Virus record (IMG/VR): IMGVR_UViG_3300020472_001862
Span: 96,001 to 160,000 of that record
Strand: one strand, 5' to 3'
DNA from: a virus
DNA length: 64,000 bases
Shown here one piece after another: positions 40,963 to 60,111 of the stretch; within the stretch, counting starts at the first letter, position 1; each line of letters begins with the position of its first letter. Position numbers and translations under genes: made by a program. The notes beneath the pieces were generated by a model, which was given only the letters and a program-made list of their open reading frames with translations, was not told the origin of the DNA and did no database searches.

Positions 40963-41275
40963 AATTTGGGAGGCTAAAAATCCTAATCAACCTGATTTTC
41001 CTATGTGGCACCCTATAGGTGGTAGTGAATATATTATAGGTTATTTGGATGTACCTGATGGTGAAGCACCACAACTCTCTCAAATTGCAGAACATGTTAC
41101 TAACTTTATGCACTTATTAGAAGGTAAAATTACGCCTAATGTCGTGGAGATATTTTCAGGATATGAGGTTTACTTTGTAGATACCTTAACACATAATGAG
41201 GCATTCCAACTACAACAAGGTGATTCTATTGACTTTCCAGCAGAAGATGTTACAAAAATCGAAGGCCAATCATAG
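40931..41275 (+). CDS. hypothetical protein
   Basis: GGAG RBS; W.P.GGSEYII. Confidence 0.7.
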   Translation: MQNLKVVASTRIWEAKNPNQPDFPMWHPIGGSEYIIGYLDVPDGEAPQLSQIAEHVTNFMHLLEGKITPNVVEIFSGYEVYFVDTLTHNEAFQLQQGDSIDFPAEDVTKIEGQS

Positions 41276-41993
41276 GTGGACATTTGGGTTTACATACTTT
41301 AATGAACCACATAAGCTAGAGATACAAATGGAAGCCTGGTCCAAATGGCCAGGTAATGTAGATATCTTTGTCGTAGACGATGGCTCAGACATTCATCCTG
41401 CTAAGGAACTATTAGAAAATTTTCATTTAGAAGACTGGCAACCAACCCTACAACTCTGGAGGGTAACAAGAAATATAGGATTTAACTCCCATGGCTGTAG
41501 AAATCTCATAGCCAAATACGCAGACACAGATTGCATACAATTCTTAGATATAGATCATGTGATGTATGCTCCCGATGTTGCTAAACTTAAACAAATGAAA
41601 GTAGGAAGTAAGGATATTATTCATCATAAAAACTATAATGAATATCAACAAACAGTAAAAGATCATCCAGGCCATATGAATTGTTTTGGTATACACAAAG
41701 ATTTATTTTGGGAAGCTGGAGGTTATGATGAATCTTTTACCGGCCATCATTATGGAGATAGAGAGTTTTTAGATAGAATCTTTGCATGTGAACACAGGAA
41801 GATAAAATCCCAATGTGCTACTTCAATGAACCGTGAAGGAAGACATGGTAGTGTAGATAAAAATGTGGAAAAGACAGAGTACACACCAGGAGACGATAAG
41901 TTTTTTAAAGTTCCTTTGGACATTCCTGAGGTTAAAAAACTTAGAGGAACAAAAACACAAAGATTGGATTTTCCGTTTATTAGGATATTATAA
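41247..41993 (+). CDS. GT-A (family 2/7-like) glycosyltransferase
   Basis: VVDDGS, CRN, FLDID, GGYDESF.G..YGD. Confidence 0.85.
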   Translation: MLQKSKANHRWTFGFTYFNEPHKLEIQMEAWSKWPGNVDIFVVDDGSDIHPAKELLENFHLEDWQPTLQLWRVTRNIGFNSHGCRNLIAKYADTDCIQFLDIDHVMYAPDVAKLKQMKVGSKDIIHHKNYNEYQQTVKDHPGHMNCFGIHKDLFWEAGGYDESFTGHHYGDREFLDRIFACEHRKIKSQCATSMNREGRHGSVDKNVEKTEYTPGDDKFFKVPLDIPEVKKLRGTKTQRLDFPFIRIL

Positions 41994-41996
41994 ATA
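41989..41996 (+). promoter_or_regulatory. T4-type late promoter; near-leaderless mRNA likely
   Basis: TATAAATA five nt before ATG 42002. Confidence 0.75.
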
Positions 41997-42001
41997 CTGT
42001 T

Positions 42002-43177
42002 ATGCGCTTTACTGAATTTTTAAAAGAAGATAAAGAAGAAGATAAACTGAAGCATTTAGAGCATGTGGAGGATCATGTAATCCATGCTGGACACGAAGGC
42101 TTTGGACATGCTTTCCATACAATTAATGATGTTCATAATAGTTTACAAGGCAAAGGTTCAGGACAAACACAGACAACAATTAAATATGATGGAAGTCCTG
42201 CTGTAGTATTTGGGAAACACCCAGAGAACGGAAAGTTCTTTGTAGCATCTAAATCAGCATTCAACAAAACACCAAAAATTAACCATTCACACGAAGACAT
42301 AGATGCTAATCACGGACATGCTCCTGGACTTGTATCTAAATTAAAAGCAGCTCTAGATCACGCACATAAAATTAAACCTAATGGTGTATATCAAGCAGAC
42401 ATAATGCACGCTGGAGATGTTAAACACGACAAGAAGAATAATAGAGTAGATTTTACACCACAGTTAATTACATATCACGCACCAGCAGACTCAGAACATG
42501 GCAAAGCAGCTAAGAGAGCCAAGCTTGGGTTAGCAATACATACGGAGTATGAGGGTAAGACAATAGCCGATATGAAAGCCAAACACGGTGCTATTGACGC
42601 AAATACCTTCACAAAGCACAAGGATGTGCACCTTATGAGTGCTAATCATGATACAAGTACACATAGGTATAGCCTGGAAGATCGTAAGCAAGTAGATCAT
42701 CATCTAGAACAAGCAGTAGCACACTTTAAAAACACACCCAAAGAACATCACGATACAGTTCAAAAACATGCTACGGCAATGAAAGTATATGTCAACCATA
42801 CAGTACGAACAGGCGAACAACATTCTCACGAAGGGTTCGTAGCACATCACAGCGCCTCACATCAAAAGAAGATAGATAAAGTTAAAACAGATGTTGCTAA
42901 AGCAAGACATCAAACTACTATGGATAACACCATAGGTCATATAAATAAGAATAAGGAACACTTTGAAGGCCCAATGAACATGCACAAGCATTTACAAGCG
43001 GCAAAGAATATAATTACAAACACAATGTCTCAAAAATCAGAATGGGGGCATGAGATAGACGGAGCTAAGACTAAACCAGAAGGTTTTGTTGCCATACGAA
43101 ATGGTAGGCCTTCTAAATTTGTAGACAGGAAAGAGTTTAGTGCGCTAAACTTTAACAAAAACGATGCGAGGAGATAA
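42002..43177 (+). CDS. His-rich ligase-superfamily nucleotidyltransferase-like protein (DUF6267-like) with capsid-targeting-like N-terminus
   Basis: MRFTEFLKE; KYDG (motif I), QADIM, EGFVA and SKFVDR in ligase motif order; about 43 His in 391 aa by hand count. Confidence 0.65.
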   Translation: MRFTEFLKEDKEEDKLKHLEHVEDHVIHAGHEGFGHAFHTINDVHNSLQGKGSGQTQTTIKYDGSPAVVFGKHPENGKFFVASKSAFNKTPKINHSHEDIDANHGHAPGLVSKLKAALDHAHKIKPNGVYQADIMHAGDVKHDKKNNRVDFTPQLITYHAPADSEHGKAAKRAKLGLAIHTEYEGKTIADMKAKHGAIDANTFTKHKDVHLMSANHDTSTHRYSLEDRKQVDHHLEQAVAHFKNTPKEHHDTVQKHATAMKVYVNHTVRTGEQHSHEGFVAHHSASHQKKIDKVKTDVAKARHQTTMDNTIGHINKNKEHFEGPMNMHKHLQAAKNIITNTMSQKSEWGHEIDGAKTKPEGFVAIRNGRPSKFVDRKEFSALNFNKNDARR

Positions 43178-43180
43178 GAC

Positions 43181-43228
43181 ATGAGCAAATGCAAATGCTG
43201 TAAATGCTGTAATTGTACTTGTTGTTAA
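43181..43228 (+). CDS. 15-aa Cys-rich micropeptide MSKCKCCKCCNCTCC (metallothionein-like)
   Basis: GAGGAG 7 nt before the ATG; 8 of 15 residues Cys; fills the gap between two genes. Confidence 0.6.
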   Translation: MSKCKCCKCCNCTCC

Positions 43229-43231
43229 GCA

Positions 43232-44089
43232 ATGGCAGAAGATAAGCACATAGTATTTTCATACGGAAGAATGAATCCACCTACTGCTGGACATAGCAAG
43301 GTTGTGGATAAGGTTCATTCTCACGCACAAAAAATAGGTGCTAATCACGCAGTTATTGTTAGTCATTCACAAAACAATAAAACAGATCCTTTACATCATG
43401 AACATAAGAAAGAATATTTAAAACATATTCATCCTGAAGTTAACTTTGAACATTCTACAAAAGAACACCCTCACTTCCTGGCACAACTTAAAAAGTTCCA
43501 CCAAGAAGGACATACACACGCAACAATGGTTGTAGGAAGTGATAGAGTAAAACAATTTAAAGCGTTGGCTAATAAGTACAACGGCAAAGAGTATAATTAT
43601 AAAAAGATACATATCTTATCAGCAGGACAGAGAGATCCTGATGCTGAGGGAGTAGCAGGTATAAGTGGAACAAAGATGAGAGCACATGCAAGTGGCAATG
43701 ACTACAAATCTTTCAAGGCAGGATTACATGCCAATCATAGTGATGAACATGCCAAAAAACTATATAAAGCAACACGACAAGGTATGAACTTACAGAAAGA
43801 GGAGAGAGGCATGTTAGACTTTCAAACATTTTTAAAAGAAGACATGGAAGGAATGTCTCAGAAGTCTGGAGACAAAAGAAGTACAGAGAGTGGTGCTGGT
43901 ATGACGGCTAAAGGTGTAGCCAAATATAATAGACGAACAGGTGGTAATCTAAAAACAGCAGTAACTACACCACCAAGTAAACTTAAAAAAGGCAGTAAAG
44001 CAGCAGGAAGGCGTAAGTCTTTTTGTGCTAGGTCCAAAGGTTGGACAGGCGAGAGAGGTAAAGCTGCTAGGCGGAGGTGGAATTGTTAA
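43232..44089 (+). CDS. His-rich HIGH-family nucleotidyltransferase fused to a basic C-terminal module
   Basis: YGRMNPPTAGH, MVVGSDR, SAG.RDPD, SGTKMR; about 22 His in the first 190 aa; C-terminal RRKSFCAR module. Confidence 0.8.
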   Translation: MAEDKHIVFSYGRMNPPTAGHSKVVDKVHSHAQKIGANHAVIVSHSQNNKTDPLHHEHKKEYLKHIHPEVNFEHSTKEHPHFLAQLKKFHQEGHTHATMVVGSDRVKQFKALANKYNGKEYNYKKIHILSAGQRDPDAEGVAGISGTKMRAHASGNDYKSFKAGLHANHSDEHAKKLYKATRQGMNLQKEERGMLDFQTFLKEDMEGMSQKSGDKRSTESGAGMTAKGVAKYNRRTGGNLKTAVTTPPSKLKKGSKAAGRRKSFCARSKGWTGERGKAARRRWNC

Positions 44090-45061: not shown

Positions 45062-45069
45062 TATAAATA
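45062..45069 (+). promoter_or_regulatory. T4-type late promoter
   Basis: TATAAATA five nt before ATG 45075. Confidence 0.78.
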
Positions 45070-45074
45070 AGAGT

Positions 45075-46505
45075 ATGAAGAACTTTATGACATTCAGAGA
45101 AGATTTAGCTTCTGGCAGACCTGCCAAAAAACCTGTTTCTAGTAATTTACTACAACAAAGAGCTAAAGCAAATACTAAAGCTCTAAAGTCAGGTTTCATG
45201 AGGTTAACGAAACAGGAAAGAGATAAAGAAGCTCGAAGAATGTCAGAAGAGAAAAAGAACTGTGGGTGTGGACAAGATCCTTGTATCACATATGGCAAAA
45301 AACAAATGAAAGAAGCTATAGATACAAAACCAGTACACGATGCCAATAAAGCATTAGAGAAAAACATGGGTCTTAAAAAGACTAAGGACTCAGGTATCGT
45401 TAAAACTAAAGGTGGGTATGCAAGGAAAAGAACTTACACCAGAGAGTCTGCCAGGGATAATTACAATCCAGAAATTTCAGATAAAAGAACTAAAGAAAAA
45501 CTTAAAAAGGCTGGACTACCGCCTGAGTCTCCTAAAGTAATGGAAGCAAGAGAAAGAATTAGAGATATATTTGAAGGTAAGAAAAAAGGACTAGACGGCA
45601 AAGCATGTTGGAAAGGATACAAACTACAAGGTACCAAAAAGAAAGGTAATAAAACTGTAGATAATTGTGTACCAATGAGTGAGGAAGAACAAATGAAACC
45701 TCATAAAATGTACAAGGGCGATAAAGTAGTCGTGGCAAAGAATAAAGCAGAACATGATAAACTTAACAAGCAAGGATATACACACGACGATCCTAAAACT
45801 AAAAAGATTGAAGAAGTATCAGATCATCTTAAGACAAGATATATCCATAAGTCTATGAGGGATATAGACACTAAGGAAAGAGCTTCACAATTAGCAGACA
45901 AACAAGGCGCACCTGCTAGTGTAGGTAAATCATTAAGTAAGTCTACAGGCAAAAGACGTAAAGGTATTGCAAGAGCAAGAGCCAATTTAGAAAGACCTAT
46001 TAGAGAAGGTAAAAAACCAGTAGTACACAGCACAAAGCCAGACAGTCTTAAAATGGTTAAGATTAAATACAACAAACCTATTAAAACAAAAGTAACAGAC
46101 ATAGGTCCTGGTGGAAAAGAAGTAGTTAGAAAAGATTGGTCTGAAGGAATAGAAAGAGATCCTAAGTCTAATTCATTTAATAGAACAAAAAGAAAAGAAA
46201 CAACTGTAAGAGTTGGACAAAAGAGAGATAAGAAAACAGGTAAGATGGTAGATGTGATGGGTAAATCATCAGCACCACAAGGCTTACCTTCAATGAAAGA
46301 ACATCAAATTCAATTGGTAACAAACTTAGATTTTAATGAAAGTCTAGGTATGTTAGTATCAAGAGGCTTAAATAAAGTCCGTGGTGCTATTAAAGATGCA
46401 GAAAAGAGAACAGGATATAAAGTAGATCCTAGTAAAAACAAACATTCAAATCCAGTATCAGGCAAGAACATTGCTAAAAGACTGGCATCGCAAAAAAAAA
46501 GGTAG
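45075..46505 (+). CDS. Lys-rich modular capsid-internal polyprotein, part A
   Basis: N-terminus MKNFMTFRE; repeated hydrophobic-X-E junctions; ends just after an A9 run. Confidence 0.65.
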   Translation: MKNFMTFREDLASGRPAKKPVSSNLLQQRAKANTKALKSGFMRLTKQERDKEARRMSEEKKNCGCGQDPCITYGKKQMKEAIDTKPVHDANKALEKNMGLKKTKDSGIVKTKGGYARKRTYTRESARDNYNPEISDKRTKEKLKKAGLPPESPKVMEARERIRDIFEGKKKGLDGKACWKGYKLQGTKKKGNKTVDNCVPMSEEEQMKPHKMYKGDKVVVAKNKAEHDKLNKQGYTHDDPKTKKIEEVSDHLKTRYIHKSMRDIDTKERASQLADKQGAPASVGKSLSKSTGKRRKGIARARANLERPIREGKKPVVHSTKPDSLKMVKIKYNKPIKTKVTDIGPGGKEVVRKDWSEGIERDPKSNSFNRTKRKETTVRVGQKRDKKTGKMVDVMGKSSAPQGLPSMKEHQIQLVTNLDFNESLGMLVSRGLNKVRGAIKDAEKRTGYKVDPSKNKHSNPVSGKNIAKRLASQKKR

Positions 46506-47825: not shown

Positions 47826-47833
47826 TATAAATA
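47826..47833 (+). promoter_or_regulatory. T4-type late promoter
   Basis: TATAAATA five nt before ATG 47839. Confidence 0.78.
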
Positions 47834-47838
47834 CTAAT

Positions 47839-49407
47839 ATGAACCACGGTATTATAATGGGTGGTGTGGTTGACTATTATTATGATTCAATCAAACGAGC
47901 ACCCGGCGCACATAAAATTGCTACACATCTAAGACGAGAAGGATGGGACGTCGAGGTATTAGATTTTGTTCAATCCTGGACAATAGAAGAACTGCAAGAA
48001 TTCACAAGACAAAGAGTACATTCAGGGACAAAGTTCCTCGGCCTTAGCGCTACATTTTCTATTAGATTTAAAACATTATATGAATTCGCCAGATGGTTTA
48101 AGAAAGAATACCCAGACATTCTAATCATAGGAGGATCTCAGGCATTCCATAATTGTGAGGGACTGCCCTTAGACTATATGGTACATGGCTATGGTGAGTT
48201 GGCTATGAGTGCTATTCTTAGCGGAGATGTTAGGTATCAGACACATAAATGGCTTAATGGACACAAATTTAGGCGCGTAGACGCCACACATGACTATATG
48301 GCAGCGCGTATGAAAGACCTAAGTACACATTACGAGGAAAGGGACTATATAGAGCCACAGGAGGTCCTTACAGTAGAGTTTGGGCGTGGTTGTATATTTA
48401 ACTGCCACTTTTGTACCCTCACTTATAGGAACATTAAGGACGATCACAGCAGGGCTGAGGACAACTTATATCAGGAAATGCTAGAGAACTATAACAAATG
48501 GGGCACAACAAACTACTCTATATCTGATGAAACAGTTAATGATTACACAGAAAAGATAGAAAGATTTGCCGGTGCTATCAGAAAATTGCCTTTTAAACCT
48601 AATTGTGCAGGTTATATTCGTGGAGACTTATTAGTACATAAACAAAAAGATTGGCAAGCAATCGAGGATATAGGCTTAAATACACAATTCTATGGTATAG
48701 AATCTTTCCATACACCTTCAGCAAAATCTGTAGGTAAAGGTATGCAGTCAGGTAAACTACAAGATGGTTTATTAGAATATAAAGACCATATGAGGAGTAA
48801 AGGACACTTCCAGGCACATTTAAGTCTAATAGCAGGACTACCACATGAAACATTAGACACATTAAGAACAACTAAAAAATGGATAGTGGATAATTGGGTA
48901 GGACAATCAGCACAAATTATGCCTTTGTGGATTCCAGATCAAACTAGAATATATGAAGAACAAAGTAGATTTGCAATGGACCCAGGCAGATACGGCTATA
49001 CAAAAACAACAATGGAAGAGTCTAGTAATGGATTCTGGGAAGACGCACCTCATAAAAGATTTGGAAATTTGTATAGGGGTATAAAAAAGAGAGAAGAAGA
49101 GGAAACAGGTGTAGTATATAACACAGAAGAGAGTACATTCCAGGAAGAAATGTCTTTTATGAACTGGAAAAATGATAATACTAATCTATATCAAGTGTTA
49201 AATTACTTAGAACATGAGTGGTATGTTGGTGATGAACAGTTATGGAAAGAACCGCCTTTACCCTTCTCATATCATAATTGGCTAATAGACCCTAATTATA
49301 AATGGGAAGATATGTCTAAACCTAAGTCAGAATTAGCTGTTCCTCAGGAATTAGCTAGAAACTTTATAGAAAATTATAAAAGGAAAAAGTTAGGATTAAC
49401 TTCCTGA
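47839..49407 (+). CDS. B12-binding radical SAM enzyme, copy 2
   Basis: KRAPGAHKIATHLRREGWDVEVLDF, IIGGS, DYMVHGYGE, GRGCIFNCHFC, DET, GIES, IAGLPHET. Confidence 0.88.
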   Translation: MNHGIIMGGVVDYYYDSIKRAPGAHKIATHLRREGWDVEVLDFVQSWTIEELQEFTRQRVHSGTKFLGLSATFSIRFKTLYEFARWFKKEYPDILIIGGSQAFHNCEGLPLDYMVHGYGELAMSAILSGDVRYQTHKWLNGHKFRRVDATHDYMAARMKDLSTHYEERDYIEPQEVLTVEFGRGCIFNCHFCTLTYRNIKDDHSRAEDNLYQEMLENYNKWGTTNYSISDETVNDYTEKIERFAGAIRKLPFKPNCAGYIRGDLLVHKQKDWQAIEDIGLNTQFYGIESFHTPSAKSVGKGMQSGKLQDGLLEYKDHMRSKGHFQAHLSLIAGLPHETLDTLRTTKKWIVDNWVGQSAQIMPLWIPDQTRIYEEQSRFAMDPGRYGYTKTTMEESSNGFWEDAPHKRFGNLYRGIKKREEEETGVVYNTEESTFQEEMSFMNWKNDNTNLYQVLNYLEHEWYVGDEQLWKEPPLPFSYHNWLIDPNYKWEDMSKPKSELAVPQELARNFIENYKRKKLGLTS

Positions 49408-59644: not shown

Positions 59645-59773
59645 ATGGACATTGAAAAACTTTTAAAAAAATATCCGCTGTTTATGAACGCGGTTTTACC
59701 TACATTAGTAGTAGCATTTGCTATGCTGATGATGTTTACCATGATGAGTTTAATTCAATCTATTGTAGTATAA
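59645..59773 (+). CDS. 42-aa membrane micro-ORF
   Basis: MDIEKLLKKYPLFMNAVLPTLVVAFAMLMMFTMMSLIQSIVV. Confidence 0.45.
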   Translation: MDIEKLLKKYPLFMNAVLPTLVVAFAMLMMFTMMSLIQSIVV

Positions 59774-59776
59774 ATA
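59769..59776 (+). promoter_or_regulatory. T4-type late promoter
   Basis: TATAAATA five nt before ATG 59782. Confidence 0.72.
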
Positions 59777-59781
59777 CATAG

Positions 59782-60111
59782 ATGGCTAGGAAAAAGAAAG
59801 AACCTAAGAAGCATAGAGTATATTGTACATATTTTCCTGATGGCAGATATTACATAGGTTATTCTTGTAAGACAGATAAACAATTTGATAAGTATTATGG
59901 TAGCTCAACCATAGTTAAGGAGTCAGTAGACGAATTGAGGAAAGAGGTTATAGTAGAATATAAAACTAGAGCACCTGCAAAAATGCAGGAGTTTTTATTA
60001 CAATGGCAACAACGACACGACGATAGGTGTGTTAATGATATGTTGCATGTTAGAATAAGGAGTAGTTTCCTAAAAGATTTCGAACCTATCGAATGGAGGC
60101 CAAATGGTTAA
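59782..60111 (+). CDS. GIY-YIG-like nuclease domain protein
   Basis: RVY...GRYYIG, YYGSS, late E and N residues. Confidence 0.65.
   Translation: MARKKKEPKKHRVYCTYFPDGRYYIGYSCKTDKQFDKYYGSSTIVKESVDELRKEVIVEYKTRAPAKMQEFLLQWQQRHDDRCVNDMLHVRIRSSFLKDFEPIEWRPNG

Follow-up and report, generated by a model that had tools for sequence, protein, structure and literature searches.

A candidate metallothionein-like micro-gene of fifteen codons carried as a mobile late-operon cassette by a T4-like marine myovirus

Within a 64-kb stretch of viral DNA (hereafter the window), a 15-codon, cysteine-dominated open reading frame (ORF) is best read, with a probability of roughly one in two, as a genuinely translated, "moron"-like accessory gene of a T4-like marine myovirus, situated in a late operon, and its product would most likely be a miniature metallothionein. 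Comparative sequence data indicate that this micro-gene is a real, conserved, and unannotated gene rather than a chance ORF or a microsatellite, and a thiolate metal binder, i.e., a mini-metallothionein, appears to be the best-fitting function for the peptide. The micro-gene is predicted to yield a free peptide of 15 residues, with a stretch of twelve holding all eight thiols. Its CxC/CC thiolates would enclose soft metal ions, such as Cu(I), Zn(II), or Cd(II), in a small metal-thiolate cluster, and during infection the peptide would thereby buffer or sequester metal, or oxidative damage linked to metal, inside the host cell. Protecting or supplying the unusually large Fe-S enzyme set of the phage (nine radical-SAM matches) is a plausible benefit, because relatives place the micro-gene beside a phage NfuA-like Fe-S carrier.

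The features of the locus are collected in Table 1. Codon by codon, the micro-gene spells MSKCKCCKCCNCTCC, in which Cys accounts for 8 of 15 residues (53%) and is preceded by only three residues. The ORF begins with the ATG at 43181 and ends with the TAA at 43226-43228, after which GCA separates it from the next ATG at 43232, and the 3′ end of the DUF6267 gene reads ...GAT GCG AGG AGA TAA, holding the GAGGAG Shine-Dalgarno (SD) motif. All these positions, as well as the count of eight Cys, agree with those given in the first-pass annotation. Its remark that the Cys codons alternate between TGC and TGT needs correction, the order being TGC, TGC, TGT, TGC, TGT, TGT, TGT, and TGT. It had also described the ORF as missed by ORF calling, and indeed 15 codons fall below what gene callers report, while homologues of 22-32 aa (four bacterial ones of 25-32 aa profiled) have no Pfam or NCBIfam match, metallothionein families included, at E values up to 10. 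With up to two mismatches allowed, the pattern CxCCxCCxCxCC occurs once in the window, compared with 0.01 occurrences expected from shuffles, and a single time in the whole 170-kb genome.

Table 1. Features of the micro-gene locus (positions within the 64-kb window)
Feature	Position	Strand	Details
T4-type late promoter box TATAAATA	41989..41996	+	Operon head; DUF6267 ATG 6 nt after box
DUF6267-family gene, upstream	42002..43177	+	PF19782, E 1e-95; 391 aa, 11.0% His, 0 Cys
Second TATAAATA box, possible internal late promoter (uncertain)	42940..42947	+	Inside DUF6267 gene; 234 nt upstream of micro-gene
Presence/absence cassette, ~70 nt	43165..43240	+	Approximate limits, from alignment with relatives; comprises new DUF6267-gene 3′ end, SD, micro-ORF, and new downstream-gene 5′ end
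Shine-Dalgarno GAGGAG	43168..43173	+	7 nt 5′ of ATG; inside last codons of DUF6267 gene
Micro-gene	43181..43228	+	15 codons + TAA, encodes MSKCKCCKCCNCTCC; 8 Cys, spacing CxCCxCCxCxCC
Cytidylyltransferase-like (HIGH-type) + DUF6321 gene, downstream	43232..44089	+	285 aa, 7.7% His; phrog_3041/395 'cytidyltransferase'

The micro-gene is the second ORF of a late operon and, with its SD 7 nt upstream, is therefore not a leaderless first ORF. The window contains 12 late promoter boxes, every one of them on the gene strand. The internal TATAAATA box, which is present in most relatives and reads CATAAATA in one clade, was considered as a dedicated promoter of the micro-gene, a role left unsupported because the box has been lost in this clade, which includes a micro-gene carrier. 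Since the downstream transferase-like gene starts 3 nt past the micro-gene stop and lacks an SD of its own, its translation is probably coupled to that of the micro-gene. Among the 104 contexts, DUF6267 is the commonest upstream neighbour (immediately adjacent in 25), and the cytidylyltransferase-like gene lies immediately downstream in 27; in some phages, DUF6267 and the transferase are fused (phrog_455 covers both). A tRNA scan detected no tRNA genes in the window, and hence no phage tRNA-Cys there, and GenBank phages gave no megablast match to the 5-kb neighbourhood. The micro-gene is covered at 100% identity by metatranscriptome contigs from two studies, these being assembled contigs that may include DNA and give neither strand nor abundance. 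One RNA-library contig covers 42953-43232, although contigs cannot reveal transcript starts. Separately, metatranscriptome contigs from runs X16 and X17 end at 43171 and 43177 and restart past 43320, a gap that may represent assembly breaks at a presence/absence polymorphism.

The cassette formed by the SD and the ORF was found in approximately 100 distinct marine viral and metagenomic contexts, which together encode 61 distinct peptides of mostly 14-19 aa, and also in Porticoccaceae, an Oligoflexia MAG, and a Woesearchaeota-binned contig. The family is spread over sunlit-ocean phages and bacteria. In nearly all of these ORFs, the Cys block starts 1-4 codons past the ATG and is followed by the stop within 0-3 codons, and many members carry a C-terminal Gly. 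An SD-like motif precedes the ORF in 75 of 88 complete cassettes, and the recurrence of GGAG/AGGAG together with ...AAGAC ATG in many contexts indicates that the SD and an AAGAC-type spacer move with the ORF. No paper describing this family, or a phage-encoded metallothionein, was found in the literature.

Evidence for selection on the encoded peptide comes from seven cassettes located via the neighbouring DUF6267 gene, which were thus not selected by their Cys pattern. Across these seven, 6 of the 8 Cys codons vary at the third position (TGT/TGC only), while none of the 16 first or second Cys-codon positions varies, a pattern whose probability by chance is approximately 2e-6 to 6e-5 and which constitutes a clear sequence signature of purifying selection. 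The proposal of the first-pass annotation that coding selection, rather than a DNA microsatellite, accounts for the Cys codons is thereby upheld: these codons change synonymously only, and the placement of SD, start, and stop is kept in about 100 contexts. It had further regarded relatives without the ORF or SD, or with frameshifts, as evidence to the contrary; the relatives are either intact with synonymous Cys changes or cleanly devoid of the cassette. Decayed copies in syntenic loci were not detected by blastn-short. In alignments, five relatives (L041, L005, L009, L018, and L012) lack exactly the ~70-nt block, i.e., a clean indel; in most relatives, DUF6267 and the transferase occur but the micro-gene does not; and on the neighbour-gene tree the micro-gene is patchy, with near-identical sisters that do and do not carry the cassette. 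These comparisons show the micro-gene to be mobile among slots and lineages. A pattern-free scan of both strands of about 690 kb of related loci for ORFs of 8-32 codons with at least five Cys and at least 30% Cys yielded nothing beyond family members (all on the gene strand and preceded by an SD), one CxC-type variant occupying the same slot, and a lone, apparently spurious ORF without an SD.

Several properties of the family point to metal binding. The peptide combines low molecular weight with a Cys content above the ~30% in CxC, CC, or CxxC motifs that is used to define metallothioneins, and this size and Cys density hold across the 61 distinct family peptides. The residues between Cys are restricted to Lys, Ser, Thr, Asn, Asp, and Glu, in line with the few or no aromatic or hydrophobic residues of metallothioneins: none of the 231 spacer residues in 77 distinct sequences is L, I, V, F, M, W, or Y, whereas such residues make up 32.6% of the window's proteins. 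Thr, encoded by ACT, ACA, or ACC, occupies the third spacer in 55 of the 77 sequences. CCxCC and CxCC motifs, with Lys beside Cys, are features of vertebrate metallothioneins. In three phages (L027, L028, and L030), the identical slot is occupied by MCKCESCKCDPCTCSN, a Cys peptide of the classical CxC type. An ArsR/SmtB-type HTH gene, whose protein bears LCGC, CC, and C-terminal CC motifs, ends 19 nt before the start of the Oligoflexia homologue (L236, 25 aa); the two genes form an operon in which the homologue is the last gene before a hairpin-plus-T terminator. An SmtB/ArsR repressor adjoining a metallothionein gene is the canonical bacterial arrangement (PMC8790569). The Oligoflexia locus is a single case, with no further ArsR-like neighbours in the other contexts. 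The metallothionein-like assignment made at first pass stands as the best fit, on indirect support from composition, Cys motifs, lack of hydrophobic spacers, the one ArsR-linked homologue, and the same-slot CxC variant, while its metal-binding component is retained here as a predicted property. The His-rich flanking genes were also considered as part of a dedicated metal module, an idea that receives no support because the flanks are equally His-rich in relatives without the micro-gene; distant carriers, moreover, are not His-rich.

Among the other explanations, a role as an Fe-S or sulfur-trafficking helper is unlikely. The peptide would then briefly hold iron, an Fe-S cluster, or persulfide and pass it to, or protect, NfuA-type carriers and radical-SAM enzymes, rather than serve as a general metal sponge. 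This idea draws on the nine radical-SAM matches in the genome and on the fact that every NfuA-bearing slot (PF01521+PF01106) directly adjoins the micro-gene, in both orders and at no fewer than three tree positions; the micro-gene directly follows the NfuA-like gene in L002-4, L006, L020, L021, and L023 and precedes it in L022. However, the window's own genome possesses the micro-gene and no NifU-domain gene, most micro-gene contexts contain no NfuA within 5 kb, and close relatives that all keep the micro-gene differ in whether NfuA lies next to it (L019 vs L023), which suggests separate indels in one hot spot. The association may therefore reflect a shared insertion hot spot together with shared ancestry. 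Adjacent CC pairs are, in addition, an unusual ligand geometry for Fe-S clusters.

Another explanation makes the peptide itself irrelevant: eight Cys codons would make completion of the micro-ORF dependent on charged tRNA-Cys, and translation of the downstream gene would be coupled to that completion by a start without an SD located 3 nt after the stop (0-6 nt in relatives). Polycysteine short ORFs (sORFs) are proven cysteine-responsive attenuators in mycobacteria, where Ms5788A/Rv0815A and others are leaderless first ORFs with runs of consecutive Cys, an RNA duplex hides the downstream SD, and genes of cysteine/sulfur metabolism follow (Canestrari et al., bioRxiv 10.1101/834739). Such a cysteine-supply gate is quite unlikely here, as the micro-ORF does not stand first on a leaderless transcript, the downstream gene offers no SD to sequester, and cysteine/sulfur metabolism genes are absent downstream. 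Its folding energy (MFE -19.5 kcal/mol vs a shuffle mean of -20; z 0.17) reveals no RNA structure beyond that of shuffled sequences. The gene that follows varies widely across the family and elsewhere has its own strong SD; an NfuA-like gene or small unnamed ORFs are found in that position, with primase, lysozyme, and terminase genes further on, within 4 kb. Furthermore, a codon sensor requires neither exact Cys spacing, nor the exclusion of hydrophobic spacers, nor a conserved Thr, and the Oligoflexia copy, at the end of its operon, has no gene to gate before the terminator.

It is very unlikely that the peptide is primarily a gene-encoded low-molecular-weight thiol, i.e., a redox buffer, a scavenger of electrophiles or reactive oxygen species, or a ribosomal stand-in for glutathione or phytochelatin, with metal ligation of secondary importance. 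Its 53% Cys, the spread of the family in sunlit-ocean phages and bacteria, and the many members ending in Gly, as glutathione and phytochelatins do, are compatible with this role, which nevertheless lacks specific support; both the strict Cys spacing and the existence of a CxC-type variant fit ligands of a metal cluster better than a pool of bulk thiol, and the Oligoflexia copy has an ArsR-type regulator next to it, suggestive of metal or metalloid sensing.

Likewise, the ORF might encode a natural-product precursor, either a leaderless substrate of phage radical-SAM enzymes (thioether formation or methylation) or a substrate of the two flanking nucleotidyltransferase-like enzymes, yielding a peptide-nucleotide conjugate in the manner of microcin C. 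The nearest of the nine radical-SAM matches lies 4.6 kb downstream (47839-49407), the micro-gene is most often found between DUF6267 and the HIGH-type nucleotidyltransferase, which are fused in the phrog_455 phages, and a C-terminal Gly is common. A modified precursor is, however, highly improbable, in agreement with the first-pass annotation, which had ranked a radical-SAM product as the less likely alternative: a leader peptide is absent, with 1-4 residues before the first Cys in nearly all relatives, the nearest radical-SAM gene is missing from L087 and L092, which retain the micro-gene and its flanking genes, and no SPASM/maturase gene is adjacent in any of the contexts examined. The flanking enzymes are equally separable from the micro-gene, as most relatives have both of them without it and 47 contexts, bacterial included, have it without DUF6267 and the transferase. 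The neighbours in these 47 contexts are uninformative on function, and a Pfam search of ten neighbours from other contexts left nine without any family.

Finally, a chance ORF over a TGY-rich repeat, or a DNA or RNA element, is effectively refuted by the comparative data and carries a negligible probability, for although a fully relaxed Cys pattern returns mostly (TGY)n trinucleotide repeats in viral contigs and in 401 gammaproteobacterial genomes, the conservation is specific to codon position, SD, start, and stop keep their placement over the ~100 contexts, family members lie on the gene strand without exception, and the region shows neither an Rfam match nor a structure signal.

If the metallothionein-like reading is carried further, marine phages may use a peptide of 14-17 aa on a mobile cassette to reshape the metal and thiol chemistry of the infected cell, a broader proposal that is possible but doubtful. 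In its concrete version, the peptide would sequester Cu(I) or deliver metal so that Fe-S maturation, involving phage NfuA and the nine radical-SAM enzymes, could continue late in infection. Trace-metal or thiol buffering would then join the host functions taken over by ocean phages, and the presence of the same peptide family in SAR92/Porticoccaceae would mean that trace-metal handling in the surface ocean has a layer hitherto unseen. Neither gene callers nor protein databases register genes of 15 codons, yet the present one spans about 100 marine viral and bacterial contexts.

Comparison with known systems places the micro-gene closest to metallothioneins. The Cu-metallothionein of Neurospora crassa has ~25 aa and 7 Cys, and the alpha-domain of vertebrate metallothioneins contains CCxCC...CxCC. 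To our knowledge, no metallothionein is shorter than ~25 aa, and the micro-peptide, should it bind metal, would be far shorter than that. It differs from metallothioneins in its 14-19 residues, in having no detectable sequence relation to their families, in being phage-borne in a late operon, and in that its metal binding is predicted; it resembles them, including the ArsR/SmtB-controlled SmtA and NmtA/AzuR (PMC8790569), in small size, dense CxC/CC motifs, the lack of aromatic or hydrophobic spacers, and, for a single homologue, an ArsR/SmtB-type regulator in the same operon. With the mycobacterial polycysteine sORFs, it shares being unannotated, very short, Cys-dominated, missed by callers, and located just 5′ of other genes, but it lies within an operon behind an SD of its own, keeps a fixed CxCC-type spacing, shows no RNA structure, and is followed by variable, unrelated genes. 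Similar to SCIFF/ranthipeptide precursors, it is short and Cys-rich and belongs to a genome with many radical-SAM enzymes; unlike them, it has no leader and no adjacent SPASM maturase, and the nearest radical-SAM gene is dispensable in relatives. Phytochelatins, (gamma-Glu-Cys)n-Gly, are also short, thiol-rich metal ligands that often terminate in Gly, but they are enzymatic products of glutathione, whereas the micro-peptide is gene-encoded. Phage morons are small accessory genes, complete in themselves, that have inserted between conserved ones, and the ~70-nt cassette resembles them in bringing its own SD, in being present or absent between near-identical relatives, and in occupying many slots; in contrast to morons, it has no promoter or terminator of its own and would be expressed through the late operon and translational coupling.

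The window, bases 96001-160000 of a 170-kb IMG/VR virus record, has about 36% G+C with all long ORFs on the + strand, and since homologues of its DUF6267 gene occur in T4-like cyanophage, pelagiphage and Methylophilales phage (~30% identity), its source is a T4-like marine myovirus. The first-pass annotation had placed an SD, a start, a stop and the next start around a 15-codon ORF with eight Cys codons (the micro-gene), and each of these positions was confirmed in the sequence. Its statement that the Cys codons alternate between TGC and TGT holds insofar as both are used, but not as strict alternation, the order being TGC, TGC, TGT, TGC, TGT, TGT, TGT, TGT. With two mismatches permitted, the window has a single match to the Cys pattern, versus 0.01 expected from shuffles; the whole 170-kb genome likewise has one.

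Features of the micro-gene locus and of related loci (L-numbers, loci of relatives or other contexts; other positions in window coordinates)
Feature	Position	Strand	Details
T4-type late box TATAAATA	41989-41996	+	heads micro-gene operon
DUF6267-family gene	42002-43177	+	PF19782, E 1e-95; 3' end ...GCG AGG AGA TAA
SD GAGGAG	43168-43173	+	inside final DUF6267 codons because of that 3' end
Micro-ORF MSKCKCCKCCNCTCC	ATG 43181, TAA 43226-43228	+	ATG 7 nt past SD
Cytidylyltransferase-like/DUF6321 gene (transferase)	ATG 43232	+	starts 3 nt beyond micro-ORF stop
Box-to-ATG sites	41989-42004, 45062-45077, 47826-47841, 59769-59784		
Slot state 1			empty; DUF6267 and transferase genes abut or overlap
Slot state 2	window, L019, L032		micro-ORF only
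Slot state 3	L002-4, L006, L020, L021, L023; L022 (order reversed)		NfuA-like gene and micro-ORF
Slot state 4			other content
NfuA-like Fe-S carrier	L087:2494-3126; also L232, L092, L022, L023		196-211 aa, Fe-S_biosyn and NifU domains; between DUF6267 and transferase
CxC-type micro-ORF MCKCESCKCDPCTCSN	L027:4372-4422; same in L028, L030		SD AGGAGG-N6-ATG; same slot, just 5' of transferase
Oligoflexia two-gene operon	L236:600-1110		ArsR/SmtB-type regulator, 25-aa family member, terminator hairpin

Syntenic relatives, whose comparison the first-pass annotation had proposed as a check, were collected through the neighbouring DUF6267 protein, blind to the micro-ORF; in these 79 loci the slot between DUF6267 and transferase takes four states. 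Across the seven distinct cassettes (SD plus micro-ORF) of this unbiased set, the Cys codons change synonymously only: six of eight vary at the third position, exclusively between T and C, and none of the 16 first and second positions varies, a pattern with a probability for six random changes of ~2e-6 (uniform) to 6e-5 (transition-biased). No decayed copy was detected by blastn-short in any syntenic locus, and alignment A1 displays a clean block of ~70 nt, either present or absent, which substitutes for the final DUF6267 codons and the opening transferase codons. Presence is patchy on the DUF6267 tree, even between near-identical sisters: L019 and L032 carry the cassette, their respective sisters L018 and L024 do not. 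The cassette thus evolves as a coding unit. The slot after DUF6267 is an insertion hot spot, repeatedly occupied by very small accessory genes; another small insert there encodes a Lys-rich peptide of ~35 aa beginning MGKGQNRERGNKNKKKPSLSIKEKKAKKK... (L024:4180-4290, L025, L026, L029).

Degenerate-pattern scans widened the family to 30 viral contigs plus 99 metagenome stretches, almost all of them marine, and seven contigs from genomes. Of the latter, four come from Porticoccaceae genomes and one from an uncultured Cellvibrionales MAG, with a single copy per genome; the others are an Oligoflexia MAG contig and one binned as Woesearchaeota (for orientation, a peptide reported for SAR86 with the same spacing is MCDCCDCCECTCCSK). 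After de-duplication the family comprises 61 distinct peptides in 104 contexts. Two unrelated metagenomic proteins of 78-132 aa (L299, L367) were set aside; these contain the Cys pattern and have a hydrophobic core CCxCCWC[WF]CC and zinc-ribbon-like ends CPxC...CPRC. Nearly all family peptides are 14-19 aa long, with 1-4 codons from the ATG to the first Cys and 0-3 from the last Cys to the stop, and an SD-like motif precedes 75 of 88 complete cassettes. Cys conservation among these hits holds by construction, whereas the three spacer codons were unconstrained: hydrophobic or aromatic residues occupy 0 of 231 spacer positions against a background of 32.6%, and the third spacer is Thr in 55/77 sequences, encoded by ACT, ACA and ACC. 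A pattern-free, six-frame scan for any Cys-rich micro-ORF over ~690 kb of related loci returned family members, each on the gene strand and preceded by an SD, and beyond these just the CxC variant and one SD-less outlier. The micro-gene is almost certainly a real gene.

At the RNA level, the micro-gene has neither a structure signal relative to shuffles (z 0.17) nor an Rfam match. Metatranscriptome contigs from two studies cover it at 100% identity (X15, 41900-43328; X18, 42953-43232); being assemblies of RNA libraries, they attest presence rather than proven transcription. In two runs, contigs break off where the cassette begins on its upstream side (43171 and 43177) and restart after 43320; such interruptions, within 43171-43360, would be consistent with assembly-graph breaks where natural populations are polymorphic for presence or absence of the cassette.

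The window contains 12 TATAAATA late boxes, every one on the gene strand. In four genes just 5 nt separate the box from the ATG, which thus begins exactly 6 nt after the box, with no space for an SD; if transcription begins at a T4-like distance, these late mRNAs would have no leader or almost none. The proteins flanking the micro-gene are the window's most His-rich (DUF6267, 11.0%, with zero Cys; transferase, 7.7%; mean, 2.68%), and together with a GT2 glycosyltransferase (41196-41993, 6.0% His) they form consecutive late genes, all among the four most His-rich proteins. The trait is common to relatives at 75-95% identity, including those without the micro-gene, but does not extend to distant homologues, and distant carriers of the micro-gene are ordinary in this respect, so His richness marks the lineage rather than a partner. 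DUF6267 and transferase probably act together; positions 18-337 of PHROG 455 (764 positions) match the former and 420-637 the latter, implying fusion in some phages.

When immediate neighbours are tallied over all contexts, the transferase leads on the downstream side (27) and DUF6267 on the upstream side (25), with NfuA next upstream (7); a further 47 contexts lack all three in the vicinity, and the genes around them mostly belong to no Pfam family. Given this variety, the cassette is an accessory gene that moves between sites and prefers one slot rather than a fixed pathway part. Every NfuA-bearing slot has the micro-gene alongside, with either gene first, and the pairing recurs at three or more positions on the tree; the close relatives L019 and L023 differ by NfuA only. 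The NfuA-like gene scores above cut-offs for NifU (64 bits) and Fe-S_biosyn (38 bits); no NifU domain occurs in the window's own genome, and a literature search on phage NfuA returned nothing relevant. The adjacency is a weak-to-moderate hint at an Fe-S connection.

Among other explanations, a simple cysteine gate, in which translation of the downstream gene, itself without an SD, requires ribosomes to get through eight Cys codons, could operate at the window locus, but it leaves the family unaccounted for: the genes downstream differ between contexts and in many cases bring their own SD, Cys spacing and spacer chemistry are conserved, and the Oligoflexia copy is the terminal gene of its operon. 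The mycobacterial cysteine attenuator combines a leaderless first ORF, an RNA duplex masking the downstream SD and downstream cysteine/sulfur genes (bioRxiv 10.1101/834739); none of the three is present here. The radical-SAM RiPP substrate, the lesser alternative of the first-pass annotation, is improbable: the genome has nine radical-SAM hits (G000:C1 13002-18529, five in tandem; 114081, 121485, 144373, 167309), but the peptide lacks a leader and a linked maturase, the closest radical-SAM gene (47839-49407) being absent from L087 and L092 although both loci retain the micro-gene and the genes that border the radical-SAM position. The flanking enzymes might instead make a peptide-nucleotide conjugate, an imaginative proposal that is contradicted because micro-gene and enzymes each occur freely without the other.

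A mini-metallothionein function, judged from sequence, may be the role of the peptide, with a probability of about 0.5. The CxC variant has six Cys spaced CxC-xx-CxC-xx-CxC, a textbook metallothionein-type motif. In the Oligoflexia MAG, the family member MSSNDEQVKDQKCKCCSCCGCSCCD (25 aa) starts 19 nt past an ArsR/SmtB-type HTH gene (HTH_20, HTH_5), whose product has an LCGC motif in its helix-3 region and two CC pairs, one of them C-terminal; the regulator gene is preceded by the inverted repeat TTGCAT-N4-ATGCAA, and a GC-rich hairpin with a T-run directly follows the micro-gene. It is the single case of an ArsR-like neighbour across contexts. A metal-sensor repressor adjoining a Cys-rich peptide is a classical bacterial metallothionein layout, as with AzuR/NmtA (PMC8790569). 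Literature searches on the motif and on phage or viral metallothioneins returned nothing relevant. The metallothionein-like reading of the first-pass annotation is partly supported, by composition, motifs, the Oligoflexia operon and the CxC variant, but not by homology, as no Pfam or NCBIfam model matches the bacterial members of 22-32 aa. Under an operational definition, the peptide matches metallothioneins in its CCxCC/CxCC motifs, Lys beside Cys and freedom from hydrophobic residues; the likeness would lie not in membership by homology but in a proposed way of working.
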